Shown here piece by piece: positions 10,099 through 25,309 of a stretch of DNA of 25,539 bases (its first letter is position 1; each line of letters begins with the position of its first letter). The position numbers and the translations under genes were made by a program. Source of the stretch: a virus; the IMG/VR virus record IMGVR_UViG_3300040801_005248, positions 1-25,539 of that record. One strand, 5' to 3'. Under the pieces are notes generated by a model that searched no databases, had not been told where the DNA came from, and saw nothing but the letters and a program-made list of their open reading frames with translations.

Positions 10099-10144
10099 AT
10101 GTAACTCCTTTCATAATTGATTAAAAGAAGCTACCAGAGGGAAA

Positions 10145-11041: not shown

Positions 11042-11063
11042 GCCCTCGCTGTACTACCACAAA

Positions 11064-11493: not shown

Positions 11494-11597
11494 TATACAG
11501 TAGATGGGCAGTGTACAGATTATTCGAAAATCTGTCAAGCCCGCTCTAAAATTTAGAAATGATAGTTATACCGCTTCGACGGGAAAGGAACTCTAAA

Positions 11598-11828: not shown

Positions 11829-11841
11829 CAAAAGCATCAAC

Positions 11842-11976
11842 ATGAACAACATCGACGCCATTATCACCTGGTGTATCTTCGGCCTAATGGTCTACATCTT
11901 CAGCCGCATCAATCAGCGCATCGAAAAAGCCGAGCCAGAGCCAGGGCCAGAAAACGAAAAAGAGCCACCGATATAA
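11842..11976 (+). CDS. Small single-TM protein (44 aa)
   Basis: MNNIDAIITWCIFGLMVYIFSRINQR followed by an acidic/Pro tail. ATG 11842 is in frame in ORF 11701-11976. The stop lies in the terminator loop. Confidence 0.5.
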   Translation: MNNIDAIITWCIFGLMVYIFSRINQRIEKAEPEPGPENEKEPPI

Positions 11977-11993
11977 AAATCGGTGGCTCTTTT
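11961..11993 (+). terminator. Terminator of the moron cassette
   Basis: AGAGCCACCGAT-ATAAAA-ATCGGTGGCTCT (12-bp perfect stem) followed by TTT. Confidence 0.65.
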
Positions 11994-12030
11994 CGTACCA
12001 TGACCGTCAATAAACCCAAAAATGAAAGGT

Positions 12031-12077
12031 GTCGGCCAGCCAGGGGGCGGGCTGGGGGGGGACCCCGGCCAACCGAC
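12031..12077 (-). other. GC/G-run-rich hairpin at the late-operon 3' end (possible terminator)
   Basis: 12031-12041 pairs with 12067-12077. The three A.C/C.A mismatches on the plus strand become G.U pairs on the minus strand. Only an interrupted T-rich tail follows on the minus strand. Confidence 0.35.
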
Positions 12078-12121
12078 AAAAAAAATTTTAGCAGGTTTGG
12101 ACGCCGGCGCAAATCAGATTA

Positions 12122-13816
12122 TCACATCCAAACGACCCAAATATTCAGGGCATACGTCCCACTGCCGCCCACCCGATACGCCACAAACGACCCGTCAGTT
12201 TTCAACTTGAGCCAGAATTGACTACCCCCAATATTATAGCCCCCGCTGGTGCCCAGGGAGTAGGACCCACTGCCCGCCACGCCACTGCTGGTTCCTTCCT
12301 TCCGTACCACAAACATCGTCCGTACCGCAATCTCAACCGCTCCCACTGGCAAAATCTCCACCTCAGACGTGCTAATCCCTGTAAACTCAAAATACAAGCC
12401 CAGGCTGGTGGCCTCCACCGTCCGCAGACCAGCATAAACCATATTCCAATCAACCGCCCCTGCCGGCAAACTCAATTGATTAGAGCCGGTCATCTCTTCC
12501 TGTGCTTCCAATAAATCTACCAATCCAGCTACATCGCCCCAACCAGCTCCCCCGCCCCCCAGCTCCCCAGCCTCCCCGCTTTCATCCCCGCCCCCCCAAC
12601 TCCCCCGGGCCAACGTCGCCCCCACTTCCAGACCCCCCACCGTGATTTCCTGCTCAAACACCCCCGCCCCACAAATTTCCCAATAACGCACCACCCGCGC
12701 CGACGAAATGGCACTCCCGCCCCACGGCGGCACACCCACGCTAACCACATCATGCACCCGCAACTGATAATTTGGCCTGGTTAGCAATTTGCCCGTAATC
12801 CGTTTGCTCAACCACAAATCCAACTCAGCCGAAGCCCGGGCCTCGCACTGGGCCGAAGTGGTCAAAGTCGAATCCCGTACCACCAGCCAGCGATAGCCAT
12901 GCGCTGAAACCTCCGCGCTATCCTCAGCCGTACCCGTCACCCCGTCGCCCTCGACCCTAACCGCATTGTACCGCGCCGAAGCCTGCGCTACCTCAGTGCC
13001 AGGCAGAAGCGGATGGCCCGACCCGTCCCAGGCGTAAGCGTAAGCCCCGCCCTCCCCGTCGGTTAGCCGCCGCGCGCCAAACACGCCGCCCGGTTTGGCG
13101 TAAAGCTCAAAGTCAGTCTTATTCATCAGCGACCGTACCAACTGATCTGCGTTGGTGAATTGCCCCGCCGTAAAATCAACTGTCACCCCAAACAAACCGG
13201 CATCAAGGCCGGTCAGGCCCGCCGCCCTCAATATCGCATCCACAATCACGGCCACATCTTGCCCCGCCCACGTCGTTTCCGTTTGATACCGGAATCGCCG
13301 TAACTTGCCCCAGCCATCCAAACAATGTACCAGCACCAGCCCTTGACCCGCATCGTGGACAAATTGCACACTTTCCACCCACACGCGAGGCAGAGCTTCC
13401 AGCACCCGCACCCCATTCAGCCATTGGCCCCGGCTCAAATCCACCGCCAGCCCCGGCCAGGCCCCCGCCGTGGCTCCAAATTGATTACCCCGATTGTCCA
13501 ACCACAGCGACAAGCCGCCCGGCTCTCTAGCCACTTCCTGATAACGATAGCGCACCACGTCCGCCGACAAATCAGAGCCGCCCATCAGCAAAGAAACAAC
13601 CGGCGAGTTGGTAATCAGTACCTTTTGTGCCGCTTCCAGGCTGTAAGCGGGTGCAGGCCGAGGCCCAAAGCCGACCCGCAACACAAACCCGGCCAACAAG
13701 TCTGTTGACCGGGCATCATAGCCAATGGTCTGAATCCTCTGCGCACCGGAGCGATAGGCATCAGGATCAAAATGCCGTACATCCGGCAGATAAACAGACC
13801 GTCTACCAACAAACAT
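12122..13816 (-). CDS. Large tail protein (564 aa), function unresolved
   Basis: Last and second-largest gene of the virion module. The C-terminus is Gly-rich and beta-rich. No specific motif recognised. Confidence 0.6.
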   Translation of the reverse strand: MFVGRRSVYLPDVRHFDPDAYRSGAQRIQTIGYDARSTDLLAGFVLRVGFGPRPAPAYSLEAAQKVLITNSPVVSLLMGGSDLSADVVRYRYQEVAREPGGLSLWLDNRGNQFGATAGAWPGLAVDLSRGQWLNGVRVLEALPRVWVESVQFVHDAGQGLVLVHCLDGWGKLRRFRYQTETTWAGQDVAVIVDAILRAAGLTGLDAGLFGVTVDFTAGQFTNADQLVRSLMNKTDFELYAKPGGVFGARRLTDGEGGAYAYAWDGSGHPLLPGTEVAQASARYNAVRVEGDGVTGTAEDSAEVSAHGYRWLVVRDSTLTTSAQCEARASAELDLWLSKRITGKLLTRPNYQLRVHDVVSVGVPPWGGSAISSARVVRYWEICGAGVFEQEITVGGLEVGATLARGSWGGGDESGEAGELGGGGAGWGDVAGLVDLLEAQEEMTGSNQLSLPAGAVDWNMVYAGLRTVEATSLGLYFEFTGISTSEVEILPVGAVEIAVRTMFVVRKEGTSSGVAGSGSYSLGTSGGYNIGGSQFWLKLKTDGSFVAYRVGGSGTYALNIWVVWM

Positions 13817-13825
13817 TAATCAGTC

Positions 13826-14275
13826 CTACTCTTCAAAAATAAGCTTGGCCCGCACGTTGACCCCCGCCGGAGCCGTGCAGACTATCCCCAGCCTGTCCCC
13901 GCCGCCAATAATCGGCTCCTGTCCCAGCGGGTAGCGTATCTCATAGCCCTGTTGAGGATGAACTTCAATCACATCCAGGGCATCGGACGTTGTCGGTTCA
14001 GCCGTGGCCGTATGCTGGGCCGATGTTTGGAGCGTTTCGGCCAGACTGTCATCCAACTTAACCGGGGTCAGGCTGGACATTGTGCCAGCCGTGCTTTGCC
14101 GGCTGACAGTCACCTGCACCGGTTCAGCCGTGACCGATGTCCCGTCAAAAAACACGCCCCAGCCCAAGACCTTCACCCGATGATTGGCCGGAGCCACAAT
14201 TTGCAACACGGTTTTGGCCGTAGCCGCCGTAAGAGCGACCTCGCTTGTTTGCGCCACACCAATAAATGCACTCAT
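13826..14275 (-). CDS. Small beta-rich virion-associated protein (149 aa)
   Basis: GAGG lies 5 nt upstream of ATG 14275 (GTG 14281 is also possible). It sits within the tail module. Confidence 0.6.
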   Translation of the reverse strand: MSAFIGVAQTSEVALTAATAKTVLQIVAPANHRVKVLGWGVFFDGTSVTAEPVQVTVSRQSTAGTMSSLTPVKLDDSLAETLQTSAQHTATAEPTTSDALDVIEVHPQQGYEIRYPLGQEPIIGGGDRLGIVCTAPAGVNVRAKLIFEE

Positions 14276-14290
14276 AGTCACCTCAATTGA

Positions 14291-14340
14291 GAATTAAGAA
14301 TTAAGAATTAAGAATTTTTGACCCCTGACCCCTGAAACTC
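14291..14340 (-). repeat. In-register heptamer repeats, no hairpin (R3)
   Basis: Plus strand: (GAATTAA)x3, GAATTTTT, (GACCCCT)x2, GAAACTC. Sense strand: (AGGGGTC)x2 then (TTCTTAA)x3. Confidence 0.85.
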
Positions 14341-14346
14341 GTTTTG

Positions 14347-14535
14347 ACCTCCCCCCCCACCCCCTCTACCACCACAGACCCCCCACCCCCCTTGCAGGAG
14401 TTGGAAAGCTGTAAACAAACCAGAAACTTCAAGCTAAACCGCAACATCCAGCGAAAGAACAAGGACACACAGCCAAGACACAGCCAAGAGACAGCCAAGA
14501 GACAGCCAAGAGACAAGGCAAAGACAGGCCAGACA
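14347..14535 (-). repeat. Composite intergenic element, copy A
   Basis: Block 1 (14347-14399) matches 21338-21390 at 51/53. Block 2 (14417-14485) matches 21409-21477 at 68/69. Tail of 11-mer repeats (AGAGACAGCCA)x3. Confidence 0.9.
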
Positions 14536-15996
14536 CTACACCCGCAGGTGACGCACCGGGCGAGGCGAGGCCACCGACCGCCCCGGCCACGACTTACCCG
14601 CCACGTAATCAATCGCAATCTTCGGCCTGTAACCAGCCGTGCCATTGTTCGAGCTATGCCATATCCGAATATTGGCCGCGCCAACGCCAATGATGAAACC
14701 GTGGTTTGTCCCACCAGCCCCAAACGCCGCCGCCAGCCTGTCCGCATCCAGGTTCGACCCTGTTAACAAATCAGCTTGAGCCTCAGTGTCCGCACTGGAT
14801 ACCGGATAAGTAATCGAAGGCGGGCTGGCATCCGCTTCATAATCCGTCCCACTGGTACCGCCCCCGCCAGAGCCGGGCCAAGCCGTGCTGGTTTTGTAGT
14901 CGTTCCAGGTCGCCGTTTCTTCCCAATCCGACACATTAGCGTGAAGCATATAAATATCAAACGCCTGTGTTCCCGCCGTGCTGTTCTTCGACCACAAACT
15001 CAGCGTTGCCGCCGTACAGGTCGCCCCCGCCGGGATAGACGTCAAATCAAATTTGACCAGGCCATGCCGAGACCCCAACCCCATTTGAATTTCAGAACTG
15101 GTGTCATAGGAATTATTTGGCAGGGATGAAAATATAAACGTGTCCTGAGCCGAAGCCTCCGCCGGTTGGTCGCTAAACGTAGGATCAAACACAATCGGCC
15201 CCGGCGGCAAAGCCTCAAGGGCCAGCACAGGCGCCCCCACAAACAAAAAGAGCCGCCCATTCTGTCTATAAAACTTGCGCCGTAGTCGCAACTGAGCCGC
15301 GCCAGCATAAGCATAGTCTACCGGCATAAAGCCCAGCAAATCACCATTGGCCGAACGCAGGTTCAACCGTTCTTCTGTCTCAAAGCCGCCCGTTACATCC
15401 TGAATCGCCCCGTCAACATCCCACCGACCAACGCCGCCAGCATCCAATTCAAACAGGAAGCCAAACATCGTTTCAGCCGCCGGCGTCACCGGCCCAGGGA
15501 GCGAAGCCCGCGCCGATTCGGATAGCCAGACTTCTTCCTTCAGCCGCAACCCCGACAATTGCCACCGGAGCGAAATACCGGGCATTACGCCCAGCCAGTA
15601 AGCGGTTAGCCCCACCGCTTGACCATCCAGCCTATCCACCCCTTGCGTCAAATCGGCCCGGTCATAAACCGCCGACGCCACCCGCTGAAAGCCAGACGGA
15701 TGCAAATACCCCGCCCCCTCCAGACGGCTCATTATCCAGCCTTGCCCCTGACGGCCACCAAAGCCCACCCAGCCATCAGCCGCCTTGCCCCCAGGCTGGC
15801 CCAGGGCAAAATGCCAGCCGTTGCTTGTTACGCGCCACCCGTCCAGGTTGTCATTATTCACCCGCTGAGGCGACAGGTTGATGTCATGCACCCAATCCGA
15901 ACCATAATGAAGCGGTGTCCCCAGCCGAGCCGTAAAGCGTTCGCCCTGACCCAACCGCAAATGTTTCCCGGTCTGCGTTCTGGCAAACTCACTCAT
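14536..15996 (-). CDS. Tailspike/fibre-like protein with C-terminal DNRLRE (CBM96-like) domain (486 aa)
   Basis: AQDTFIFSSLPNNSYDTSSEIQMGLGSRHGLVKFDLTSIPAGATCTAATLSLWSK...VSDWEETATWNDY follows the DNRLRE-domain pattern. ATG 15996 gives an ATGA overlap with the upstream stop. Confidence 0.55.
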   Translation of the reverse strand: MSEFARTQTGKHLRLGQGERFTARLGTPLHYGSDWVHDINLSPQRVNNDNLDGWRVTSNGWHFALGQPGGKAADGWVGFGGRQGQGWIMSRLEGAGYLHPSGFQRVASAVYDRADLTQGVDRLDGQAVGLTAYWLGVMPGISLRWQLSGLRLKEEVWLSESARASLPGPVTPAAETMFGFLFELDAGGVGRWDVDGAIQDVTGGFETEERLNLRSANGDLLGFMPVDYAYAGAAQLRLRRKFYRQNGRLFLFVGAPVLALEALPPGPIVFDPTFSDQPAEASAQDTFIFSSLPNNSYDTSSEIQMGLGSRHGLVKFDLTSIPAGATCTAATLSLWSKNSTAGTQAFDIYMLHANVSDWEETATWNDYKTSTAWPGSGGGGTSGTDYEADASPPSITYPVSSADTEAQADLLTGSNLDADRLAAAFGAGGTNHGFIIGVGAANIRIWHSSNNGTAGYRPKIAIDYVAGKSWPGRSVASPRPVRHLRV

Positions 15997-16652
15997 ACCC
16001 AGCCCCGGCCTCGTCTGGCCCATTTGTCCTTTGGCGTTTCAATCCGGCTTTGCCCCTGCGCCGCCTGATTGCCCGCTTCATCCATCAGCCAGGCTTTAAA
16101 TTCGGCCACCCGCTCATTGCCCCAGGCCAAAATACGCCCCGTCACCTGTCGGCCCAACGTCACCTGCTCTTCCAAATCCAAAGCGCGAGTTTGGGCCGCA
16201 AACCCCGCCGCCCCCAACTCAAGCATACTCAGGCCCACCGAATTGAAACTTGTAGCGACCGCCCCGTCCAAGTCAGCCAGAATGTGGAGCGTCCCATAGA
16301 ACACCCGTACCACATCCCCCGAACTCGGCTCATAGCCATCAGGGAAATAAATCACCTGACTATCACGCCACCACTCAAACCGCCGCCAGTTTGGGGGATA
16401 CTCAGGTGCAGAAGCCGTATAGGGCGACCACACCCGTTGAACCACCAACACATCAGACAGGGAGCTAATATCTACCTCACGGCCATTCGCCGCCAGCGTC
16501 ACCGTCCCCATCGTCTGACGAGGCAGTACTTGGCTGTACTCATGCGCCGCCTGTCTAATGCCATTGTCCAGCGCATCAGCCGACCAGATGTCATTGGCCA
16601 CATCAGCCAGGCGTATCTCTACCCTATCCCGGAGCGTTGCCAAATTTGTCAT
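15993..16652 (-). CDS. Virion protein, possible head-tail adaptor (219 aa)
   Basis: AGGAGG lies 7 nt upstream of the ATG. Position is between head and tail genes. No diagnostic motif. Confidence 0.6.
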   Translation of the reverse strand: MTNLATLRDRVEIRLADVANDIWSADALDNGIRQAAHEYSQVLPRQTMGTVTLAANGREVDISSLSDVLVVQRVWSPYTASAPEYPPNWRRFEWWRDSQVIYFPDGYEPSSGDVVRVFYGTLHILADLDGAVATSFNSVGLSMLELGAAGFAAQTRALDLEEQVTLGRQVTGRILAWGNERVAEFKAWLMDEAGNQAAQGQSRIETPKDKWARRGRGWV

Positions 16653-16665
16653 AAAAAAACCTCCT

Positions 16666-16750
16666 GGAAATTGGGAATCAGGAATTAGAAAGGCCCACTC
16701 CCTAACCCCTAACCCCTAGCCCCTAATTCCTAATTCCTACCCCCTACTTC
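16666..16750 (-). repeat. Heptamer repeat spacer, seven sense-strand TAGs at 7-nt spacing (R4)
   Basis: Plus strand 16702-16750: CTAACCC x2, CTAGCCC, CTAATTC x2, CTACCCC, CTACTTC. The last CTA is the real stop of gene 16744-17016. The left arm GGAAATT GGGAATC AGGAATT is partly complementary. Confidence 0.85.
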
Positions 16751-17016
16751 CCCTTTAAATAATCCACCAAATCACCCAGCCCCACCGTATACTTCTGCCC
16801 CGTCCACAAGACCAGGGCCACGCCATCAGCGTACACCCGAAACTCTAAAATCTGCTTGGGGTCTATGCCATCGTGTTCGCACACATCATGCCCCGCCCCC
16901 TCTAAAAATTGCCGCGCCGCCTCCACCTCTTTTGGAAGATTAGTTTCCAACTTATCTACCTGTAGGTGCGTCTTTGAAGCCCTAGCCGTTCTCTTTGTCG
17001 CTTGTTTCGCCATCAC
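16744..17016 (-). CDS. Hypothetical small virion-module protein (90 aa)
   Basis: AAAGGA lies 7 nt upstream of ATG 17016. The longer 17070 start lies in repeat sequence. Confidence 0.55.
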   Translation of the reverse strand: MMAKQATKRTARASKTHLQVDKLETNLPKEVEAARQFLEGAGHDVCEHDGIDPKQILEFRVYADGVALVLWTGQKYTVGLGDLVDYLKGK

Positions 17017-17044
17017 AAATCCTTTCTTCAGGAGCAGGGAGCGA

Positions 17045-17094
17045 AGCCGCCCCCTAACTCCTAAACTCAAACACTCAACTCAAACTCAACCCTA
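17045..17094 (-). repeat. Irregular (A)AACTC-type short-repeat spacer (R5)
   Basis: Plus strand: CTAACTC CTAAACTC AAACACTC AACTC AAACTC AACCCTAA. The sense strand is G/T-only rich with multiple TGA/TAG. Confidence 0.7.
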
Positions 17095-17490
17095 ACACCG
17101 CCACCGCACCAACACCGTCCCCGTAATCGTCGGCGACGAGCCGCCCGCAAAATTCAAATCAAAATTGTACCGCCAAAACGCCGGAGATGAAGCGTTCTCG
17201 TCCTCGGCTTCGGCCTGATGCGTCCCCGCTAATTTGGCCGAATCGTCCGGACGGAGCAGAACCGTGCCGGCACTGGTGCCGAGTGCGCCAGCACTAATTG
17301 GCGTGTTGGTGGTGGTGCCATCGGTGATATTTAAATCCAAGGTTACGGCCGTCGGCGAACCGGCCACCGCGCTTTGATACACCACCACGCTATCTAGCGT
17401 CATTGGCCCATCAGCCGTTTGCAAGGGTACAACGTGAATCGCGTCGGCATCGCCTTGCGTACTCAATTCAAAAAAATGTTCAACTAACAT
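17092..17490 (-). CDS. Small beta-rich head/virion protein (132 aa)
   Basis: GGAGG lies 4 nt upstream of the ATG. It sits immediately downstream of the capsid gene, so a decoration or accessory role is possible. Confidence 0.6.
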   Translation of the reverse strand: MLVEHFFELSTQGDADAIHVVPLQTADGPMTLDSVVVYQSAVAGSPTAVTLDLNITDGTTTNTPISAGALGTSAGTVLLRPDDSAKLAGTHQAEAEDENASSPAFWRYNFDLNFAGGSSPTITGTVLVRWRC

Positions 17491-17502
17491 ACTGCCTCCG
17501 AA

Positions 17503-17572
17503 TAGAAATTAGAAATTAGACGTCAGATGTCAGCAGTCAGATTACCGACTACCGACTACTGACTACTGCTTA
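17503..17572 (-). repeat. Ten in-register heptamers including a hairpin (R6)
   Basis: Sense strand: TAAGCAG TAGTCAG TAGTCGG TAGTCGG TAATCTG ACTGCTG ACATCTG ACGTCTA ATTTCTA ATTTCTA. The first TAA is the capsid gene stop. 17522-17540 pairs with 17545-17563. Confidence 0.85.
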
Positions 17573-19591
17573 CGCTACATTATTTTTGTGAATGCCCCGA
17601 TAGCCATCCACGCCCACGGCAAATTCATCACGGACTTTAATCGGGAGCTTATCGTTGGTGAACATCAGGCCGCCCAATTCACTTTGAGCCGTGAAGATCT
17701 CCGGAAGCGGGTGTTCCCGACCGCTGGCATCCTGACCATAGGTCATATGGATGACCGGGAAAAGCATCGGGTCAACGATGGCGGCCCAATCCGTGGCGTC
17801 AGTCCAATCAGGCACGGCCACCGGCACCGGACGAGGGTCAGCCGGGCCACGGTCATTGTAATTGGCGTCGTGAGCCGTCGGCACGGCATCGCTGTAGCCA
17901 AAATTATCCAGGGCTTGCCGATACAGATCGCCCGGCACCAGACAGTACTTAGGCCAGAAGCCCAGGCGTTTACCGCTTCCAATTTCAGTCTGCTTGAAAA
18001 CCGCCAACGAAGCCGCATTCCAAGCGGTCGTATCCGAACCCAAAGCCGTCGTCAACAAGTTGTTATGGTCGGCGTGGAACAAGGCCGTACTGTCCTGGCT
18101 TAAGGTCGGGCCAACGCCGCTATTGCTGGTAAAAATGGCACTGACCGCCGCCGAACGAGTACGCACCGCCGCCACCGCCAGAGAGCGAGGCACAACCTGA
18201 AGGCGCTGGATGTCAGAGTTCAAAATCATATTGCGGGTGATGGACAGATAGCCGCCTTTTTTGTCCCAGCTGTCGCTCTCTTTGGCGTCGTCAATCTCAA
18301 GCTCGGTGTAGGCCGCCCCATCGCTCACATCGGGCAAATCCCCTACCCCCCCAAAAGAAATCCACTGCATGTCGTGTCTACTACCATCGTTGGGTTCCAG
18401 CTTGGTAATCAACTCAAACCAGCGATACAGCTGTAAGTAGGTCCAGTGCTGAATAATGACCTTATTCATAGCGTTGACCGCCATCCCCGGCAACGTCACC
18501 GGCGAGGCCCCCGCCAACTCAACCCGGCTGGCATCAAACACACCGTGAAACGCGACATCACCAGAGGCGGCCACATAAATATCACGGAAACTGCGCCGGT
18601 TAGGCGGAGGCGTATCCGCCCCATCCACCCCAAAAATCCAATCAACATCATTTTGCGCCCGGTCAAGACCCGTTACTTGGCCCTCCAACCGGGTTCCTGT
18701 CTCCCGTTCCCGGGGAGCATGGCCCATCCCGGTCACGGCAGAGCCTTGGCCCAGCCGTTCCAGGGCCGATTGCAGGTCATCAATCTTTTGCTCAAGCCGA
18801 GCCGTGGCCTGGCTATCCGAGTCCAGATCAACAACCTGCGACTCGCCAGACAGAGCCGCCTCAATCAGCCTCGCAATGCGCCGCTGATAGGCTTTCTGGT
18901 CACCGTCCCGTTGCAATTGCTCATCGAAAACCTCTACAAGCTCATTCAGCAAGCCCTCATTGCTGGGTTCGTGACCTTCCTCATAAGTCACTTTCGTTTC
19001 TTCAGTACCACTCATAGCAAATTCCTCCATCAATAATTTATTAAGGCTCAATTGAGCACGAGCCATAGATAACATTTCCAACAAACGACCATCAGCCGCC
19101 GGGCCAAAAACCACATCGCAACTAATCACCTTCTGAATTTCAGTCAGCCGCCTGATACCCTCCCCATCTTCTTCAAACGCTCCGTAAAAATGGAGACTAA
19201 AGCCGATGTCGGGCACGGCCGCGCCAGTCTCCGCATCTTCGACCAAATCGTCCAGCAGTTCAGCCAGCCACGCCAGATCAGAGCGACTATACAAACTCAG
19301 CTTACCCGTTACGTCCCCGTCAGCATAAGTCACGGCAGAGAATACCCCCGCCGTTTTTTCAACTGAAGGCGACTGGAGCCAGCCGGGATGATCCACCAAA
19401 CAGCCCGCCCCCTCGAACAAGCCCCGTTCAACCGCATCCTGTAACACCGGAGCCGGAATAAATATATCCCCCGGCGTACCGTCCGCAAACACCACCCGCC
19501 CCGCTTTAATCAAGCGTACCAAATACTGCCGCCGTTTGCCGGTGGCCGCCAGCGATATCTCACTCTGGAGTCTCATTACTTCCACTGTCAC
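17570..19591 (-). CDS. Major capsid protein (HK97-fold-like C-terminal half) fused to a long N-terminal protease/scaffold-like region (673 aa)
   Basis: Position is directly after portal. The middle is a charged coiled-coil (EEGHEPSNEGLLNELVEVFDEQLQRDGDQKAYQRRIARLIEAAL). The C-terminal ~330 aa show capsid-like patterning (KKGGYLSITRNMILNSDIQ..LFHADHNNL..YCLVPGDLY). The start is uncertain (GTG 19585 has the best AGGAGG spacing). Confidence 0.6.
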   Translation of the reverse strand: MTVEVMRLQSEISLAATGKRRQYLVRLIKAGRVVFADGTPGDIFIPAPVLQDAVERGLFEGAGCLVDHPGWLQSPSVEKTAGVFSAVTYADGDVTGKLSLYSRSDLAWLAELLDDLVEDAETGAAVPDIGFSLHFYGAFEEDGEGIRRLTEIQKVISCDVVFGPAADGRLLEMLSMARAQLSLNKLLMEEFAMSGTEETKVTYEEGHEPSNEGLLNELVEVFDEQLQRDGDQKAYQRRIARLIEAALSGESQVVDLDSDSQATARLEQKIDDLQSALERLGQGSAVTGMGHAPRERETGTRLEGQVTGLDRAQNDVDWIFGVDGADTPPPNRRSFRDIYVAASGDVAFHGVFDASRVELAGASPVTLPGMAVNAMNKVIIQHWTYLQLYRWFELITKLEPNDGSRHDMQWISFGGVGDLPDVSDGAAYTELEIDDAKESDSWDKKGGYLSITRNMILNSDIQRLQVVPRSLAVAAVRTRSAAVSAIFTSNSGVGPTLSQDSTALFHADHNNLLTTALGSDTTAWNAASLAVFKQTEIGSGKRLGFWPKYCLVPGDLYRQALDNFGYSDAVPTAHDANYNDRGPADPRPVPVAVPDWTDATDWAAIVDPMLFPVIHMTYGQDASGREHPLPEIFTAQSELGGLMFTNDKLPIKVRDEFAVGVDGYRGIHKNNVA

Positions 19592-20882
19592 TACCTCCTA
19601 AAATTTCCTGTATTTTTTCTTCGCCCAAAACCTCACCGGCGAATTTGAAACTTAATCGAATGGCCGTCTCGTCATCAATCCAGCCATTTTCTTTCATTGT
19701 CGCAAACGCCGCCACAATAGTACTGGCGGCATTAGCCAGGCTCTCATTATCTTGCCGACTAATATCCGGCACAGCCACATGCACCGGATAACTGTCCCGT
19801 CTTGGAGCCAGGCCCAGCGCCGCCTTGCACTCATACGCCCGGCGAACGACGTCGGCCACAATGGAACGTATCTCATTCTGCCTCATTCTGTAATGCCGCC
19901 GCGTGGGATCGCCCATCTCCGCCGCCGTGCTACGATTGGCCGAACTGCCCTCACTCAGAAAATGCAAAGGAACATTGGCCCCAGCCGCCAGGGCCAGGCG
20001 CAACACCCGCCCGTCTGGTTCAGCATCCCAGCCCTGCACATTCATAGCCTGATAGCGCAATGTCTCCCCCTTGCCGTGGATGAACAACCCCCCGTCAATC
20101 GGAGGATTAGCCTCATACTGGGCCTGTTTGGTGGCTAAATCGCGGTCATTCTCAATCTCAATATCAACCGCCGCCATTCTTGCCCTAAGCTCATTCAAAT
20201 CAACCCGCCCATTCAACCAGGTCGTATACCGTTTGGCCCAGGGCAAAACCGGCCCCAAATCGCCTTGCCCCCTTGTCCGCCCCACCACCCGATTGATTTT
20301 GTAATGCAATAAAACCGGTTCGCCCGGCTCTGCTGTGTGCACCGAAGCCCACAGCCGCCCCCCAATTTCGTCCTCGTCTCCCTCAACGTCCAACACCTGC
20401 GCCACCTGACGATAGCCAAGATGCTTTTCGTAATCCTGCGGGTCGGTCAGCACCCGTTCAATCTGCGTGGCCGGCAATTCCCGAATGTAACACATCCCCG
20501 ACACCGCGTCTGGAAATAAAGCCACAAAAATCTCACCACTGCGGGTCAACTCGTCACACCAGGCCGGAAGCCGCTGAACCAGCCTGTTTTCGTCATGGTC
20601 GGCAAACTCACGCACAAACTGCCCAAACTCCCCTTCTTCAGCGGAAACGGTCATTGTATCGCCGATAACATAAGCCGTAGTCAGGCGCACAATCTGCCGG
20701 ATGAGGAAATTCCTGTCCCAGGCTTCCAGGGCGTCCGTCAAATCCTCATAGTGATCAGCCCAGGCCCTATCGCTGGGGCCATCGCCCGCATAGCTCACCG
20801 GTTGCCAACCAGGGTGGTTATCATCTACCAACACATTCAGGGCCAGCATCAGCCGCCCCCACCACTGCTTAAGCACACTCAT
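19560..20882 (-). CDS. Portal protein (440 aa)
   Basis: Size, an acidic C-terminus and the position between TerL and the capsid gene. ATGA coupling to the upstream gene. Confidence 0.7.
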   Translation of the reverse strand: MSVLKQWWGRLMLALNVLVDDNHPGWQPVSYAGDGPSDRAWADHYEDLTDALEAWDRNFLIRQIVRLTTAYVIGDTMTVSAEEGEFGQFVREFADHDENRLVQRLPAWCDELTRSGEIFVALFPDAVSGMCYIRELPATQIERVLTDPQDYEKHLGYRQVAQVLDVEGDEDEIGGRLWASVHTAEPGEPVLLHYKINRVVGRTRGQGDLGPVLPWAKRYTTWLNGRVDLNELRARMAAVDIEIENDRDLATKQAQYEANPPIDGGLFIHGKGETLRYQAMNVQGWDAEPDGRVLRLALAAGANVPLHFLSEGSSANRSTAAEMGDPTRRHYRMRQNEIRSIVADVVRRAYECKAALGLAPRRDSYPVHVAVPDISRQDNESLANAASTIVAAFATMKENGWIDDETAIRLSFKFAGEVLGEEKIQEILGGSDSGSNETPE

Positions 20883-21109
20883 AAGCCGCCCCCCCTTGTT
20901 TCTCCCGGTGGCGGGACAATCTCATCCTTTGGCCCTTGCCATTCATAATGATGGAACAGGCGAAAACAATTACACCCCCGATGCAGGGGAGGCTGAGGGC
21001 CTTTGCCTTTCCGGAAAATCCGGCCCACGTGGGGCATACAAGTCTTACAGGCCAGCGACCCATCGCTGTTTACCATTGTGTGATACTGTTCGTACTCAAT
21101 CCAGGGCAT
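20879..21109 (-). CDS. Mini MuF/SPP1-gp7-like C-terminal-motif protein (76 aa)
   Basis: DGSLACKTCMPHVGRIF....PPLHRGCNCFRLF matches the D..C..C..G...PP.H..C.C signature of head-morphogenesis proteins. Confidence 0.5.
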   Translation of the reverse strand: MPWIEYEQYHTMVNSDGSLACKTCMPHVGRIFRKGKGPQPPLHRGCNCFRLFHHYEWQGPKDEIVPPPGETRGGGL

Positions 21110-21115
21110 AACGTC

Positions 21116-21304
21116 CTACCAATCCGACACCCACTCATATTCAATAAAAACCCGATAGCAGTTACAGTTATCGTGATACGGAGGCCAATCAATCGGATCA
21201 TCCTCATAATAAGTATTGCCCACGTACTCTTCGCAAAGCTCACAAACGTGCGACCCATCCTGATTCATCTCAGAGCGTATCTCATAAACTTTTACCCACG
21301 GCAT
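21116..21304 (-). CDS. Mini MuF/SPP1-gp7-like C-terminal-motif protein, paralogue (62 aa)
   Basis: MPWVKVYE..DGSHVCELCEEYVGNTYY...WPPYHDNCNCYRVFIEYEW aligns with the neighbouring 76-aa protein (MPWIEYEQ..DGSLACKTC..PPLHRGCNCFRLFHHYEW). Confidence 0.5.
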   Translation of the reverse strand: MPWVKVYEIRSEMNQDGSHVCELCEEYVGNTYYEDDPIDWPPYHDNCNCYRVFIEYEWVSDW

Positions 21305-21337
21305 AAGCAACCTACTAACTACCGACTACTGATTTTA

Positions 21338-21498
21338 ACCTCCCCCCCCACCCCCTCTACCACCACAGAACCCCCGCCCCCCTTGCAGGAAACCAGAAAC
21401 CAGAACTAAAACCAGAAACTTCAAGCTAAACCGCAACATCCAGCGAAGGAACAAGGACACACAGCCAAGACACAGCCGACAGAGCCGACACAGCCAGG
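21338..21498 (-). repeat. Composite intergenic element, copy B
   Basis: Same two conserved blocks as copy A, in the same orientation, directly after the TerL stop (TAG 21499-21501). Confidence 0.9.
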
Positions 21499-23055
21499 CT
21501 ACTGCCAGCTATCCCGCCGACGCTGAGGCCGCACAACCACGCTGGCCCCAGAGCCGAAGAACAACTTGGCATCAAGGCGAAGTTGCTCCACATAGCCGAC
21601 CAGAGCCGCCGACAACAGCCGGTCATCGTGCACATCAACCACCGAACCATCAGACAAGACGTGCTTCTGCCCCGCTCGCACCGACCAGCGTAAACCGCGC
21701 TCAATCGGGTAGCCTTCGGCCAGCTCATAGCCGCAGTACTCGGCCTGTAGGAGAAACCACCACACATCAGACAATTCAGCCGCCACCGCCGAAGCCTCGG
21801 CGAAATACCGGAAACGGCCAGTCTCAATCAAGCTCAGGAAGGCATTGCCCAGCCACGCCTTGCCCTGCTGCTTACTAAAGTCGAATGGCCAGACCTTGCC
21901 CTGAAATCTTTCGCTCAGCGCGTCAGACAATCCTTGCCCCACGCCCGAAGCATCCACCACCACCGCCGCCGGTCGCCACCGATCCAGGAGCGACACCAAG
22001 CGAGTGAACAACGCTGGCCGCCCCGGATGATCCTCAAAATGCCGACTGCCCTGGTCAGTGAACACGTCCACCGCTTCATACCGTGGCCCCAAATCATCTC
22101 CCTCAGTCACCCGGACAATGGTCAGCACCGTATAATCACGCCCAGGGTTGACCAACTCCGCAAACTGCGACGTCGCCGCCTCGTCCTGACCGCCGACATC
22201 CAGGAGCGCGACATACGCTTCCCCGGCCACCGGGCCAGCCAGCCGAGCATGCGCCCCGGCCATCAGCCCACGCCGCCGCGCCGGGAACAAGCCCGCCGCC
22301 GTGTCCACCGGCTCATTGAATAATTCAGTCTTAACCGACGGATGTTCCCGCCCTTTTAGGCGCACCTGGTTGGCCACAAACTCGCCATAATGCGGATTTT
22401 CCAGGGCCACATCATCCGGGCCGACAATGAACACCCGTTTAATACCATCTTCTAACGTCAGGCGTTCCAGGCGAGACTTAACCGTCCACAGATAATCGCT
22501 GGTTGTGCGCACCGTCCCTACAAATAGAGCCGTGGCATTGGCCGAAGCCCGCATTGGCGTGAATCGCCGTTCAATCGTTGGTTCGTGCTGGTCTTGAACC
22601 TCGTTGATAATCAAAAGCAAATTGGCCGTTGCCCCCTCGCTTTTCGCCTGCGGGTTACCAGAGAAAAACGCGACCTGCGCTTTGCCCAAGCCCCGGCGAA
22701 TCGGTTTCCGGCCCGACCATTGCCGCCCCCCGGAAAAAATATTATCAAGCCGGTAATCCAACCGAGTAGTACCCGTCGAAATTTGGCTACTGCTGGGATA
22801 GACGTGGACAACACCCGCTTCTACCCGCTGAAACAAGGCCAACAGATAGGCGCATAACTGCCCAATCGCTTCATCTTTCCCACTTTGCCGAGGAAACACC
22901 CACAAAAACTCAAGCCCCCGCTTATGCAGACAGGAATCAACAACAGCATCCACCGGCCCCAGCTGATAATCGCGTAAGGGATAGCCAATCACCACCGCCG
23001 AGTACAGCCGGGCGGATTTTAAGACCCGCTTAATTTTTGAAAGAGCGTCAACCAT
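21499..23055 (-). CDS. terL: Terminase large subunit (518 aa)
   Basis: Walker A-like FPRQSGKDEA, Walker B-like LLLIINEVQD, and a C-terminal nuclease-length domain. Position is upstream of portal. Confidence 0.85.
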   Translation of the reverse strand: MVDALSKIKRVLKSARLYSAVVIGYPLRDYQLGPVDAVVDSCLHKRGLEFLWVFPRQSGKDEAIGQLCAYLLALFQRVEAGVVHVYPSSSQISTGTTRLDYRLDNIFSGGRQWSGRKPIRRGLGKAQVAFFSGNPQAKSEGATANLLLIINEVQDQHEPTIERRFTPMRASANATALFVGTVRTTSDYLWTVKSRLERLTLEDGIKRVFIVGPDDVALENPHYGEFVANQVRLKGREHPSVKTELFNEPVDTAAGLFPARRRGLMAGAHARLAGPVAGEAYVALLDVGGQDEAATSQFAELVNPGRDYTVLTIVRVTEGDDLGPRYEAVDVFTDQGSRHFEDHPGRPALFTRLVSLLDRWRPAAVVVDASGVGQGLSDALSERFQGKVWPFDFSKQQGKAWLGNAFLSLIETGRFRYFAEASAVAAELSDVWWFLLQAEYCGYELAEGYPIERGLRWSVRAGQKHVLSDGSVVDVHDDRLLSAALVGYVEQLRLDAKLFFGSGASVVVRPQRRRDSWQ

Positions 23056-23168
23056 AAAAATAGAACCATCAGCGCATCACGTACAATGACGGCGAGTAAG
23101 GCCAGGAACAGAAATCGTACCGAGCGTTCCAGCCGCCGTAATCTAAATTGTAACCAGGTCGAGTCCAT
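23019..23168 (-). CDS. Possible small TM protein (49 aa) overlapping the terL start
   Basis: ATG 23168 lies 4 nt after the upstream stop. One hydrophobic helix (FLFLALLAVIV). It overlaps terL by 37 nt. It fills an otherwise empty 117-nt gap. Confidence 0.3.
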   Translation of the reverse strand: MDSTWLQFRLRRLERSVRFLFLALLAVIVRDALMVLFLWLTLFQKLSGS

Positions 23169-23172
23169 CCCA

Positions 23173-23487
23173 TCACCGTAACCACTCCAAATAAGTCCCC
23201 AAATCATCTCCCAAGTACCAGGCCACCGCCGAGGCCAATATCAGACCCAAAAGCCGGATTAAAAACGTCAGCGCCGAGCCTGCCCAGGCTGAGCCGCCCT
23301 GCTCAGGCTCAGCCGCCTTGCCCTGCTCAGCCGAGCCAGAAGGAGCTTGGCTGTCCCTATCCGAATCGCCCGGCGCATCGAGCTCAGGAGCCTGATTGCG
23401 CTGACGCGCATCAGGGGCCGGATTGCGCTGACGCGCAACCGGCCACCGGCTGAGCGCCGCCCTAAATCGTTTCTCACCATCGCCCAT
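23173..23487 (-). CDS. Hypothetical protein with C-terminal TM helix (104 aa)
   Basis: ATG 23487 lies 2 nt after the TerS-like stop. Internal near-repeat ARQRNPAPD/ARQRNQAPE. Confidence 0.55.
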   Translation of the reverse strand: MGDGEKRFRAALSRWPVARQRNPAPDARQRNQAPELDAPGDSDRDSQAPSGSAEQGKAAEPEQGGSAWAGSALTFLIRLLGLILASAVAWYLGDDLGTYLEWLR

Positions 23488-23489
23488 TG

Positions 23490-23948
23490 TCACAAATCCC
23501 ACTCAGACCCAAGCTCAGAATTGACCTCATCAAACAACGTCCCCAACGCCCCCAGCAGTCCATCAGCCGCATCCCCGCTTAAAGCCCGTTGGTCACGCAA
23601 TAGTCTCCCGATTCGGCTGGCGTTTTGGCCGTGGAGCGTCAGCAGTTTAATCATATCGGCCAGCTCTACGCCGCCCTGACTGCTCTTCTCCTGAATATAG
23701 GCACTCAACTGAGCCTGCCGATTGAAAACATCCTCCAACACATCGCCGATATCGTTCAATTCCATAGTTGGAGCCGAGTAATAGCCGTGCTTTTCGGCGT
23801 TGCTATTGCCCTCCGGTGCGCCAACCAGTGCGCCGCCATGAGAAGCGCATCGAGGCGGGCTTGAGCCACGCATAGACCAAGCCTTGCATTGTCGGCCATC
23901 ATTCGGATACCGATATTCGCATTTCCGAGAAACGTAAGCGGAGCACAT
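23490..23948 (-). CDS. Terminase small subunit-like protein (152 aa)
   Basis: N-terminal 4-Cys module plus HGGALVGAPEGNSNAEKHGYYS (the GN.NA.KHG.Y motif common in small terminases). First large gene of the late operon, upstream of terL. Confidence 0.45.
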   Translation of the reverse strand: MCSAYVSRKCEYRYPNDGRQCKAWSMRGSSPPRCASHGGALVGAPEGNSNAEKHGYYSAPTMELNDIGDVLEDVFNRQAQLSAYIQEKSSQGGVELADMIKLLTLHGQNASRIGRLLRDQRALSGDAADGLLGALGTLFDEVNSELGSEWDL

Positions 23949-24024
23949 AGGTATACATCTCCAACGCCAACCAATAGGTGAGCAAAAGCACGGCTAAAAA
24001 AATCCCTGTGGCTGGCTGTTTCAT
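23899..24024 (-). CDS. Possible 41-aa TM peptide at the head of the late operon
   Basis: GGGAG lies 5 nt upstream of ATG 24024, directly after the terminator U-run. Sequence MKQPATGIFLAVLLLTYWLAL... It overlaps the TerS-like start by 50 nt in another frame. Confidence 0.3.
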   Translation of the reverse strand: MKQPATGIFLAVLLLTYWLALEMYTYVLRLRFSEMRISVSE

Positions 24025-24034
24025 TGATACTCCC

Positions 24035-24075
24035 AAAAAAAAAGGGGGCGACATCGTAAAACCGACGCCGCCCCC
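24035..24075 (-). terminator. Strong intrinsic terminator immediately upstream of the late operon
   Basis: Minus-strand RNA: GGGGGCGGCGUCG-GUUUUA-CGAUGUCGCCCCC (13 bp including 2 G.U) followed by U9. On the plus strand the two G.U positions are A.C mismatches. Confidence 0.8.
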
Positions 24076-24384
24076 ACTGTAGAGGATAAACACACAGTAA
24101 AATTATCGCACAAATGTTCGCTAAGTCAACCTCTTGTGCAACTTGACCTATAAAACCAGCTCTTCCGGAGGCTTCAGTGGCCAGATTCATTGTGCAGGTT
24201 GCCATAGATTGAATCCGGTATTTTTTTATACAGTGAATCGTCCCCCAAGTCGCCGCCTTCTCCAAACCATAAAAGCGGGATGCCCTTGCTGGCTACGTGG
24301 CGGGCGGTCAGAGGGGGGCTGTTTTTTTCCGAGGCTTCACCTTTGGCCGAGGGTGGATGCCTTTGGCGCGGGCTTGTGCCCGGC

Positions 24385-24412
24385 GTGGATGCGGCAAAAA
24401 ACGCCGCTCCAC
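24385..24412 (+). other. A-loop hairpin a (GTGGA-t-GCGGC AAAAAAC GCCGC TCCAC)
   Basis: 10 bp with one bulge and a 7-nt A-rich loop. Confidence 0.6.
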
Positions 24413-24468
24413 CACGCCTAGAAGCTACCAGCACCCAGCACCTGCGCCGAGTTGTGCCCCGGCGCTCA

Positions 24469-24485
24469 GGCCGAAAAACACGGCC
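24469..24485 (+). other. A-loop hairpin b (GGCCG AAAAACA CGGCC)
   Basis: 5-bp perfect stem and 7-nt A-rich loop. A GCGCCG/CGGCGC hairpin (24444-24465) lies just upstream. Confidence 0.6.
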
Positions 24486-24533
24486 TCAACGCCGGAGCGA
24501 AGCCTATCAATGGCCGAGGGTGGGCGGCATACG

Positions 24534-24550
24534 CTGGCAAAAACAGCCAG
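24534..24550 (+). other. A-loop hairpin c (CTGGC AAAAACA GCCAG)
   Basis: 5-bp perfect stem with a loop identical to hairpin b. Confidence 0.6.
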
Positions 24551-24620
24551 ACGCAAGCCGCAGGGGAGTAGCTTCGCCCTTCCGGCAGGCTTTGCCCATC
24601 TCGACCTCGGTTCAGTTTAG

Positions 24621-24714
24621 TTTTTTTTGGCGGGCGGGGCGGTAACATCCCCAGCCCCAACTCCCTTAACCCGAATCGCCTTACAGACCGCGCCTAACCG
24701 CCCGCCAAAAAAAA
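24621..24714. other. Long-range perfect 17-bp helix I (T8GGCGGGCGG / CCGCCCGCCA8)
   Basis: 24621-24637 pairs with 24698-24714, all Watson-Crick. 4-5 further pairs follow after a TAA bulge. Confidence 0.75.
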
Positions 24715-24715
24715 C

Positions 24716-24777
24716 GCAGGCAAGCAAAAGCCTTGGCTAGATAAAAAAAAGCCTCCGCCCGGCTTTTGCTTGCCTGC
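24716..24777. other. Perfect 17-bp helix II (GCAGGCAAGCAAAAGCC / GGCTTTTGCTTGCCTGC)
   Basis: 24716-24732 pairs with 24761-24777. The 28-nt loop contains A8. It starts 1 nt after helix I ends. Confidence 0.75.
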
Positions 24778-24897
24778 ATCCGTCAAAAACTCCGCTCCTC
24801 CCCTCCCCTTTTTTTTGTGCAAGTTCCCGGAGGGATGCCGCACTTTTCTTGTCTGGCAATTTCATTTGCAGAACAACCGAGTCTGCACTTGTGGGCC

Positions 24898-24931
24898 GCA
24901 ATTTTTTAAGCACGTTAGCTTAAAAAATTGC
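24898..24931. promoter_or_regulatory. 14-bp perfect inverted repeat, operator candidate
   Basis: GCAATTTTTTAAGC-acgtta-GCTTAAAAAATTGC, 38 bp upstream of the -35 of the candidate early promoter. A second palindrome TTTTGCC-AA-GGCAAAA lies at 24950-24965. Confidence 0.55.
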
Positions 24932-24968
24932 TTGTTGTGCCATAGAAACTTTTGCCAAGGCAAAACCA

Positions 24969-24997
24969 TTGCCAGCCTGCGAAAAAGCGCGGCTAAT
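24969..24997 (+). promoter_or_regulatory. Candidate sigma70-like rightward early promoter
   Basis: TTGCCA (24969-24974), a 17-nt spacer, then GCTAAT (24992-24997), 61 nt upstream of ATG 25058. Confidence 0.4.
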
Positions 24998-25057
24998 TCA
25001 CTTTTTAAAAACAAAGTCGGCTTTTGCCGCCACCACCATCATTTTAAGGAGTTTACC

Positions 25058-25309
25058 ATGCTACACCCACAAAATTTTCGTCAAGTCTCAGGCTCTGCCG
25101 TCGGCCACCGCGCCCAGCGCTGGCACGTGGGCCGCTCGTCTCGCTCATTCACCGGGCACGTAGTCCGGGCCCTTTTCACCAACCACGCCCATGCCGCCGC
25201 TTTTGCCCGCTCCGCCTCCGCCCGCCTAGGGCGCTCGGTTTCCATCCGTCGTTACAAAGGCGGCTGGCTTGTGTCTGTGCCCGTCCAGGCTCGCAAGGTG
25301 GTGTCATAA
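25058..25309 (+). CDS. Arg-rich basic small protein (83 aa)
   Basis: AAGGAG lies 5 nt upstream of ATG 25058. 12 Arg in 83 aa. The C-terminal region reads AAAFARSASARLGRSVSIRRYKGGWLVSVP. The long upstream ORF extension from 24770 has no support. Confidence 0.65.
   Translation: MLHPQNFRQVSGSAVGHRAQRWHVGRSSRSFTGHVVRALFTNHAHAAAFARSASARLGRSVSIRRYKGGWLVSVPVQARKVVS

Follow-up and report, generated by a model that had tools for sequence, protein, structure and literature searches.

A Predicted Intrinsic Terminator between a LexA-Type-Box Promoter and the Late Operon of an Uncultured Temperate Phage

Why would a phage carry a near-ideal transcription terminator directly in front of the first gene of its late operon? 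The question is raised by the IMG/VR virus record IMGVR_UViG_3300040801_005248, a stretch of 25,539 nucleotides that was analyzed over its whole length and is referred to here as the window. Bases 1–117 are identical to bases 25423–25539, which makes the window a circular or terminally redundant contig and gives a genome of 25,422 bp. The window is a small uncultured temperate phage. It encodes an integrase (10145–11041, plus strand), an Xis-like HTH protein (11471..11268, minus strand), a DnaA_N-type replication protein (10098..9241, minus strand), an exonuclease, and a J-domain protein; no CI-like repressor was recognized in it. Iteron-like repeats lie directly past the stop codon of the DnaA_N-type gene. 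What appears by eye to be the 3′ end of a tRNA gene follows the integrase at approximately 11085–11115, where ARAGORN finds no tRNA gene.

The late genes form a long minus-strand operon. It opens with a 41-aa ORF containing one transmembrane helix (23899..24024, ATG at 24024), followed by a TerS-like gene, the terminase large subunit (TerL, 21499..23055), the portal (20882..19560), a protease-capsid fusion (19591..17570), and a tail protein (13816..12122). The TerS-like gene (23490..23948, 152 aa) begins at the ATG at 23948, as the initial annotation of this DNA had placed it; its product has a Cys-rich N-terminus and a weak match to the PHROG terminase small subunit, and homologues are encoded directly upstream of TerL in 19 loci. 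In the first late ORF, the segment ..Y..A.E.Y..V.. is conserved in six related loci (L001, L002, L003, L005, L006, and L008), and in L005 and L006 the counterpart of this ORF is fused in frame with the TerS-like protein. No cultured relative was found: blastn of 23400–25539 against INPHARED phages gave no match, the sole match in a tblastn search of TerL against cultured phages was at 27% in a Bacillus phage, and a metagenome scan with the TerS-like protein returned no close relative. TerL relatives with 36–64% identity are IMG/VR contigs and prophages in metagenome-assembled genomes (MAGs), mostly of Chloroflexota (Anaerolineae, Ardenticatenaceae, and Chloroflexia). Because most of these relatives come from Chloroflexota MAGs, the host is probably a member of that phylum.

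The element in front of this operon, on the minus strand, is a hairpin (24044..24075) with a 13-bp GC-rich stem and a U9 tract that ends 10 nt before ATG 24024, as first described from the sequence. The 5′ arm, GGGGGCGGCGUCG (24075..24063), and the 3′ arm, CGAUGUCGCCCCC (24056..24044), enclose a 6-nt loop, GUUUUA (24062..24057), and form 13 contiguous pairs, comprising 10 G-C, one A-U, and two G·U pairs. The U9 tract (24043..24035) abuts the stem with 0-nt spacing. The Shine-Dalgarno sequence of the first late gene, GGGAG (24034..24030), comes directly after it, with 5-nt spacing to ATG 24024, again in agreement with the original description. That description had also pointed out that the two G·U pairs become A·C mismatches on the plus strand and had taken this to favor a minus-strand RNA, and folding bears the argument out. 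An 81-nt region folds at −33.3 kcal/mol (z −5.1) as minus-strand RNA, as compared to −22.6 kcal/mol for the same 81 nt as plus-strand RNA, in which the two A·C mismatches are opened; the minus-strand fold is much better because of the two G·U pairs. A T run after the hairpin is absent on the plus strand, so the U tract exists on the minus strand only. Intrinsic terminators are expected to combine a GC-rich stem of 5–14 bp and a loop of 3–8 nt with a run of six or more U residues that abuts the 3′ end of the stem and is confined to the transcribed strand. The values here are 13 bp, 6 nt, and U9.

At −27.7 kcal/mol, the element at 24075..24035 is the strongest terminator-like element in the genome. 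When the whole 25.4-kb genome was shuffled 60 times with dinucleotides preserved and both strands were scored, the best hairpin before a run of at least seven T residues reached −17.2 kcal/mol. The same combination of hairpin and U tract closes the three other transcription units, at the end of a plus-strand operon (3782–3816, plus strand), after the integrase (11234–11270, plus strand), and after a tail gene (11996–11954, minus strand), which suggests that the phage uses this signal as a terminator elsewhere. Rfam gave no genuine match in the window (gathering score; E ≤ 5 on 23900–25400) or in ten relatives. On its sequence, the hairpin is a canonical, orientation-specific predicted intrinsic terminator, and it would probably stop most transcripts that reach it.

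Which transcripts reach it depends on where late transcription begins. The initial annotation had late transcripts arriving from an upstream leader of 1 kb. However, a sigma-70-type promoter, TTGACT-16-TGcGATAAT (24129..24102), with 10 of 12 consensus matches, lies only 27 nt upstream of the terminator stem, in a geometry that is conserved in relatives. Its −35 hexamer, TTGACT, is at 24124..24129 and is separated by a 16-nt spacer from an extended −10 element, TGcGATAAT (24102..24110), in which TG precedes the second hexamer. Further upstream, the minus strand yielded no promoter of similar quality, and this is the only credible predicted late promoter. The order on the minus strand is promoter (24129..24102), terminator (24075..24035), and ATG 24024. 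The proposal that late transcription must read through the hairpin thus holds for this promoter, since the hairpin sits between it and the first late gene.

By the spacing typical of sigma-70 promoters, transcription is predicted to start at a G (24095), the seventh nucleotide after the −10 element. Termination in the U tract would then yield an RNA of 59–61 nt (~60 nt). In the predicted 61-nt RNA, the hairpin is preceded by ~20 unpaired nt. Both the MFE and the centroid predictions for the 61-nt and 81-nt RNAs show the terminator only, with no alternative (antiterminator) fold. Because the leader is only ~20 nt long and lacks an alternative fold, a put-type RNA or a riboswitch is excluded, and the suggestion of HK022 put-type RNA antitermination, for which Rfam likewise offers no match, is not upheld. 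A search of the genome for a trans-acting RNA complementary to a terminator arm or to the leader found nothing specific. A short inverted repeat, ACTGT-N13-ACAGT (24076..24098, minus strand), spans the start site and forms a small hairpin in the fold; it contains a −10-like hexamer, TATCCT, at approximately +8 to +13 (24088..24083, minus strand). Neither is statistically distinguishable from chance; a TAnnnT in 20 AT-rich bases is not significant. An E. coli-type LexA box at the start site (CTGT…ACAG) was considered and rejected, the spacing being N13 rather than N8.

The DNA upstream of the late operon is better explained in another way. A plus-strand gene of 168 aa begins at 25309 and continues across the junction, and 24025–25308 is therefore a divergent intergenic region rather than a late leader. 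The leader had been called unusually long and structured. The 1.28-kb region is indeed strongly structured on the minus strand, with z down to −7.5 at 24450–24569, but the length does not apply to the leader proper, which has ~20 nt ahead of the terminator. The region also contains terminator-like hairpins of its own, among them a 17-bp stem followed by GU8 (24785..24716, minus strand), which further argues against its being the late-operon leader. A comparison of 30 ORF fragments from 24030–25330 with all loci gave no match that would indicate coding potential, and the upstream 1.28 kb has neither an Rfam match nor detectable conservation. It could be a cos/pac or origin region, or it could hold small RNA genes. 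The structure and the additional terminator-like element would also fit a start far upstream in the 1.28 kb, with the promoter prediction false and the hairpin the last of several terminators overcome by a put-like RNA or a Q-like protein. Such a transcript would meet at least two earlier terminator-like structures, and its region shows none of the conservation seen for the geometry of the proximal promoter, which extends to relatives and to 76 IMG/VR loci described below. Together with the 10/12 score, the extended −10 element, and the lack of a comparable minus-strand promoter further upstream, these points make a distant start very improbable.

The spacer of the proximal promoter contains a LexA-type box, GAACATTTGTGC (CGAACATTTGTGCG including flanks; 24108..24119, minus strand), which the initial annotation had missed. 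It has the form GAAC-N4-GTGC, matches GAAC-N4-GTTC at 7 of 8 core positions, and is the sole such box in the non-coding DNA of the genome. The LexA protein of Dehalococcoides, a member of the Chloroflexota, reportedly binds a GAAC-N4-GTTC motif. This is the LexA motif of Gram-positive bacteria (PMC3323433). A single box is not significant alone, given a background of 0.07 per kb in 518 kb of loci; its recurrence across relatives is. A TTGAC[A/G/T] −35 element occurs at the matching distance from the box in 9 other promoters. The composite geometry TTGAC[A/G/T]-N2-6-GAAC-N4-GT[T/G]C-(0-3)-TAnnnT precedes the late operon in L003 (two promoters), L049, L051, L052, L055, and L059, and a GAAC-N4-GT[T/G]C box is found at the equivalent promoter position in L069 and L070 as well. 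The box is instead placed immediately downstream of the −10 element (TGCTACACT-N5-GAACAnnTGTTC) in L002, L005, L006, and L008. The relatives that conserve the promoter geometry have no DNA similarity to the window here: a blastn comparison of the upstream region with 60 related loci gave matches only inside TerS. The window thus has a GAAC-N4-GTTC-type box overlapping the core promoter of its late packaging operon. Because the spacer carries this predicted operator, the late promoter is probably SOS-repressed rather than constitutive, with host LexA as the likely repressor. Independent support comes from two of these relatives: directly after TerL, L002 and L003 each carry a gene for a protein of 70–77 aa that consists of a LexA DNA-binding domain alone and matches LexA_DNA_bind (PF01726; E values of 1e-10 and 4e-15). 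A homologue search with the L003 protein returned only that protein itself.

Terminators accompany this promoter in several relatives. In the subclade whose late operon opens with a small transmembrane segment, a strong leader hairpin followed by a U-rich run is always present. The closest relative, L001, has a 17-bp leader hairpin and then UACAUUUU, and L002 has a leader hairpin with U7. L003 contains two tandem units, each with a box promoter, an RNA of ~110 nt, and a terminator (−20.5 and −33.7 kcal/mol). L006 likewise has two tandem promoter-terminator units, and L005 has a hairpin as in L006 with a weaker U run (UUUAUGCGUUU). Of these leaders, that of the window is the shortest, and its terminator is the most canonical in the subclade. 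The arrangement extends to L231, a distant member of the TerL family (TerL 36%, TerS-like 32%), in which the order is as in the window, with a box promoter, a hairpin followed by the U run CUUUUGUUG, a 99-aa transmembrane protein, TerS-like, and TerL. A more distant clade whose TerL is ~36% identical (L012, L013, L017, L020, L022, L030, and L034) is arranged differently: an extended −10 promoter precedes a conserved leader made up of a hairpin (P1), ACAAGGCGACUGCC, and a terminator ending 10–25 nt before the first late gene. Of the 17 pairs in its leader and terminator hairpins, 9 have changed in a compensatory way, with 94% of cells paired, a level reached by 0 of 500 shuffles. Leader and terminator have therefore been under selection as RNA in this clade. 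A 15-mer scan for the leader motif of this clade returned mostly chance matches and 8 genuine copies. The prophages L049, L052, and L055 have a box promoter directly before TerS without a terminator; a terminator is therefore not obligatory for late operons of this kind.

The same composite was sought across IMG/VR with the pattern TTGAC-N5-7-GAACAnnTGTGC[G/T]A[A/T]nnT. It was found in 76 loci, as compared to a chance expectation, roughly estimated, of under ~10. Terminators were counted for the 69 promoters with at least 200 nt downstream, as a hairpin and U tract with ΔG ≤ −10 within 260 nt. Such elements follow 19 of the 69 promoters on the sense strand, mostly 41–136 nt after the −10 element; the corresponding control counts were 2 of 69 for the antisense strand and 6 of 60 for upstream sequence. 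The loci form 37 DNA-level clusters, with a terminator in all members of 17, in some members of one, and in none of 19 (17–18 of 37 with a terminator). Two of the terminator-free clusters are large, with 25 and 13 loci; in the 25-locus family, the promoter sits between TerL and portal. In most modules, a sense ORF with a ribosome-binding site begins 20–46 nt past the U tract. Judged by eye from N-terminal sequences, these ORFs include scaffold-like (L069, L196), ChaB/protease-like (L193, L235), portal-like (L201), and holin-like transmembrane proteins (L221, L231, L234) and an 838-aa protein (L199). No sequence is common to the leaders, and no protein family was found to co-occur with the terminator-bearing modules.

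This survey bears on two other functions for the element. Promoter, hairpin, and U9 tract could constitute a gene for a ~60-nt SOS-induced small RNA, with the late genes living off read-through. Four to five of the 19 modules (L070, L215/L262, L228, and L247) would indeed yield a short terminated RNA that is not followed by any sense ORF, and the upstream copies of the tandem units in L003 and L006 would give short RNAs only. The window RNA, however, consists of 20 unpaired nt and the terminator, has no match elsewhere in the genome, and belongs to no Rfam family. A ribosome-binding site and late gene at the distances noted for most modules, and 10 nt after the U tract in the window, point to a role in cis. 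The leaders, moreover, are unrelated in sequence. We consider a small RNA gene improbable. Alternatively, the hairpin could be a 5′-proximal stabilizer of the late mRNA against 5′-end-dependent decay. It does lie near the predicted 5′ end, and the hairpin of L231 is ~8 nt from the end of the −10 element. A stabilizer has no need of a U9 tract, though, and with a start at 24095 the window hairpin would be preceded by ~20 unpaired nt. Elements of the identical kind end the other operons of the genome, and hairpins with U tracts are enriched on the sense strand only. Stabilization as the sole function is accordingly rated as highly unlikely, and the terminator reading is retained in what follows.

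How, then, would the late genes be expressed? The initial annotation had proposed antitermination control on the model of lambdoid PR′-tR′. The layout of promoter, terminator, and late gene fits this model, no Q accompanies it, and antitermination of the late operon is what we infer from the arrangement. Its remark that no Q-like gene is recognizable is confirmed by Pfam and PHROGs searches of all 40 ORFs, which found no Q, N, NusG paralogue, or other antiterminator family. PDB sequence searches of four early proteins returned nothing, no early gene was found to be common to the terminator-bearing relatives, and the genes that immediately precede the late promoter in relatives have no counterpart in the window. 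Approximately 20 early ORFs of this 25.4-kb phage are without annotation. The early genes lie in two blocks (25309..3733, plus strand; 10098..4004, minus strand), and two Zn-ribbon proteins (6445..5912 and 2836..3162) are the foremost antiterminator candidates.

Tentatively, and with confidence somewhat below even, we favor a reading in which the promoter-proximal terminator turns an SOS-type late promoter into a pair of locks, such that the late genes need regulated read-through by a factor acting in trans. The first lock would be host LexA, which would keep the near-consensus promoter shut in the lysogen by binding the GAAC-N4-GTGC box. The second would be the terminator, at which RNA polymerase, having made an RNA of ~60 nt, would be released 10 nt short of the start codon of the first late gene. 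The transmembrane peptide, TerS-like protein, TerL, portal, capsid, and tail would be made only by a terminator-resistant polymerase. The factor conferring resistance would most likely be an early protein of the phage, which may load at or near the promoter, as Q does, or modify RNA polymerase generally. It would have to act in trans because the leader is too short for a sensor or put-like RNA and has no alternative fold. The outcome would be an AND gate with a delay, with late expression requiring both DNA damage and the build-up of an early product.

The main competing explanation is passive: a leaky terminator may simply scale down a strong SOS-controlled promoter with no dedicated factor, late expression rising after induction through LexA cleavage and template copy number. 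No antiterminator gene is detectable in the window, some relatives manage without a terminator, and terminator strength and U-tract quality vary widely, as in the U runs of L005, L001, and L231 given above; all three observations agree with passive attenuation. However, the window terminator is near ideal, with 13 bp and U9, and very little read-through is predicted. A passive terminator cuts basal and induced output equally and leaves the on/off ratio no better, so by design logic it would pay on a consensus promoter only if read-through is regulated. The tandem promoter-terminator units of L003 and L006 are hard to see as mere scaling. In addition, the covarying structure and conserved single-stranded motif of the distant-clade leader are as expected for a recognized RNA. 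Passive attenuation is for these reasons rather unlikely in our estimation, and regulated read-through by a trans-acting factor is favored.

Comparison with known systems places the element close to lambda PR′-tR′. Both have a strong sigma-70 promoter directly before the late operon and an intrinsic terminator between that promoter and the first late gene, giving a short abortive RNA (the 6S leader RNA in lambda), and in both the leader is too short for anything except a factor loaded at the promoter. In contrast, the window has no Q of the lambda, 21, or 82 family among its 40 ORFs by Pfam or PHROGs. Lambdoid Q is normally encoded just upstream of the promoter, where the window has 1.28 kb of non-coding DNA and no gene. 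Lambdoid control further involves a Q-binding element at the promoter and a −10-like, sigma-dependent pause site in the initially transcribed region; at these places the window offers the ACTGT-N13-ACAGT repeat and the TATCCT hexamer, neither of which stands out from chance. The lambda promoter is constitutive, whereas that of the window carries a predicted LexA-type operator, and the lambdoid hosts are Proteobacteria, whereas the host here is probably of the phylum Chloroflexota. By analogy, the late element would work like lambda PR′-tR′ but is not a member of the lambda Q system. HK022 put is a two-stem-loop RNA of ~65–70 nt that is transcribed before the terminator. It shares with the window a read-through, proposed in our case, behind which no phage antiterminator protein is recognizable; the window, however, has only ~20 unstructured nt before the hairpin and no similar RNA between promoter and terminator.

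There are precedents for late or packaging operons that are under LexA control and require a second factor. The late promoter P3 of GIL01, a tectivirus of Bacillus thuringiensis, is repressed by LexA-gp7 and activated by gp6, a truncated LexA homologue that acts on the LexA-repressed promoter (PMC6182141). As in the predicted operator of the window, Gram-positive-type LexA boxes lie inside the core promoter of P3. Derepression is insufficient in GIL01, where the second phage factor, gp6, delays late expression, and a second requirement is what we propose for the window. The truncated LexA of GIL01 also has a parallel in the stand-alone LexA DNA-binding domains of L002 and L003. The second requirement differs in kind: in GIL01 it is an activator at a weak promoter, and in the window it would be a terminator acting as a barrier behind a near-consensus promoter. 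No gp6- or gp7-type protein and no LexA-like gene were found in the window. SaPI operon I of Staphylococcus aureus is a LexA-controlled packaging operon (Ubeda et al. 2007, as cited in PMC3152322). There, a terS-containing packaging module is directly under host LexA, which resembles the window, although it belongs to a satellite rather than a complete phage, and no promoter-proximal terminator is reported for it. In phages phi11 and 80alpha, a factor-independent terminator is located in the region immediately upstream of terS (PMC3152322). Control immediately upstream of terS is thus shared with the RinA-dependent late promoter of these phages. The order there, however, is terminator, activator-dependent promoter, and terS, which provides insulation, as compared to promoter, terminator, and genes in the window, and no RinA/ArpU-type protein was found in the window.

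To our knowledge, the control of phage late genes by processive antitermination has been worked out almost exclusively in the lambdoid phages of Proteobacteria. We know of no description of a LexA-box promoter with a promoter-proximal terminator as a recurrent late-gene cassette, and a literature search for one found none. The lack of relationship among the three known Q families suggests that there are further ones. It is possible, if doubtful, that SOS-box promoter, short leader, terminator, and late genes together form a widespread, undescribed two-key switch in temperate phages whose hosts have a GAAC-N4-GTTC-type LexA (Chloroflexota and probably others), and that it is read through by new families of Q-like antiterminators dissimilar to the three known ones or by another trans-acting factor.

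The arrangement described here would bring PR′-tR′-like logic to an uncultured lineage of Chloroflexota phages, joined to direct LexA control and with no known antiterminator. About half of the independent IMG/VR lineages that have this promoter type contain the cassette, in most cases just ahead of scaffold, protease, portal, or holin-like genes. Should read-through be regulated, new antiterminators could be sought wherever the cassette occurs, and there would be an explanation of how late genes are held back after DNA damage in small temperate phages that lack a CI-like repressor. If new Q-like families exist, this 25.4-kb phage, with only about 20 unannotated early ORFs, would be a compact place to look for a member. 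Unregulated read-through would instead make the cassette a common device for damping SOS-driven promoters. In both cases, it offers a simple sequence signature for annotating the starts of late operons in such phages.

The first and last stretches of the window (1-117 and 25423-25539) are 100% identical; the contig is therefore circular or terminally redundant, with a unique genome of 25,422 bp. Across the junction runs a plus-strand ORF of 168 aa (25309..393), beginning MLIGVTGSRRF...GCARGADKA, which is without a match in Pfam or PHROG. After the integrase, inspection by eye revealed a tRNA 3'-end-like sequence (GGTCGTGTGTTCAAATCACACCGTCGCCA) at 11085-11115, which is a likely attP core, but ARAGORN found no tRNA. 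Divergent promoters (10/12) at 11465-11552 lie on either side of the Xis-like HTH gene. The replication origin is probably the gap at 9126-9236, which contains iteron-like repeats and inverted repeats (TTATGTACCGTACATAAG) and is located immediately 3' of the stop codon of the DnaA_N-type replication gene (10098..9241), before the next minus-strand ORF (9070..8858).

Repeats of two further kinds are present. Arrays that repeat every 7 nt, first as (GTCAGTA)n and then as (GACTACT)n, occupy intergenic gaps at 5757-5849, 7268-7346, 17504-17582 and 21312-21332, one of them directly 3' of the capsid gene. As hairpins, the long imperfect palindromes that they form may stabilise mRNA or serve in its processing. 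A 155-nt repeat, G-rich on the coding (minus) strand, occurs in two copies that are 90-92% identical (14337-14491 and 21328-21483), and these adjoin the downstream sides of TerL and of a 495-aa gene.

The intergenic region 5' of the late promoter (24385-25060) is strongly structured on the minus strand, with z reaching -7.5. Within it, a 17-bp stem followed by GU8 (24785..24716, minus strand) precedes a segment of the form U8-GGCGGGCGG...CCGCCCCGCCCGCC-A8 (about 24714..24621, minus strand). A perfect, AT-rich 14-bp palindrome is also located here (24898-24931), together with eight runs of A or of T, each 7 nt or longer. The region gave no match in Rfam, no conserved ORF is present there, and there were no relatives for comparison. 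The region may serve as a cos/pac or origin region, or it may encode small RNAs.

At the start of the late operon, the 41-aa transmembrane (TM) ORF (23899-24024) and the TerS-like ORF (23490-23948) overlap in different frames. In the related loci L005 and L006, a TM segment homologous to the 41-aa ORF is joined in frame to the TerS-like protein. It follows that in the window the split is genuine, the two frames are joined by programmed frameshifting, or there is an indel near 23925-23948.

Stand-alone genes for a LexA DNA-binding domain (PF01726) are found directly 3' of TerL, within the late operon, in the related loci L002 (7517-7726) and L003 (7523-7753); the window has none. These genes are analogous to gp6 of GIL01, the truncated LexA homologue that activates the tectivirus late promoter P3. 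In a 25-member phage family (L191, L200, L214 and 22 related IMG/VR loci), whose TerL is related at about 30% identity, the same LexA-box promoter has TerL on one side and, on the other, a 111-aa Cys-rich protein that is followed by the portal; this promoter is without a terminator.

In a distant clade (L012, L013, L017, L020, L022, L030, L034 and L167), the late operon is preceded by a conserved leader RNA that is absent from Rfam and has compensatory pairs (9/17). The arrangement, exemplified by L020 4570-4690, starts from a promoter with an extended -10 and runs through hairpin P1, ACAAGGCGACUGCC and, optionally, one more hairpin to a terminator. At locus L069 (1879-2060), the identical 18-mer, GAACATTTGTGCGATAAT, forms a promoter, and a leader of 105 nt separates it from a terminator. 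From their sequences, the two ORFs 3' of this terminator can be taken for scaffold and major capsid proteins, and the opposite flank looks like a host TIR/pentapeptide-repeat gene. The L069 module may be a capsid-encoding satellite.
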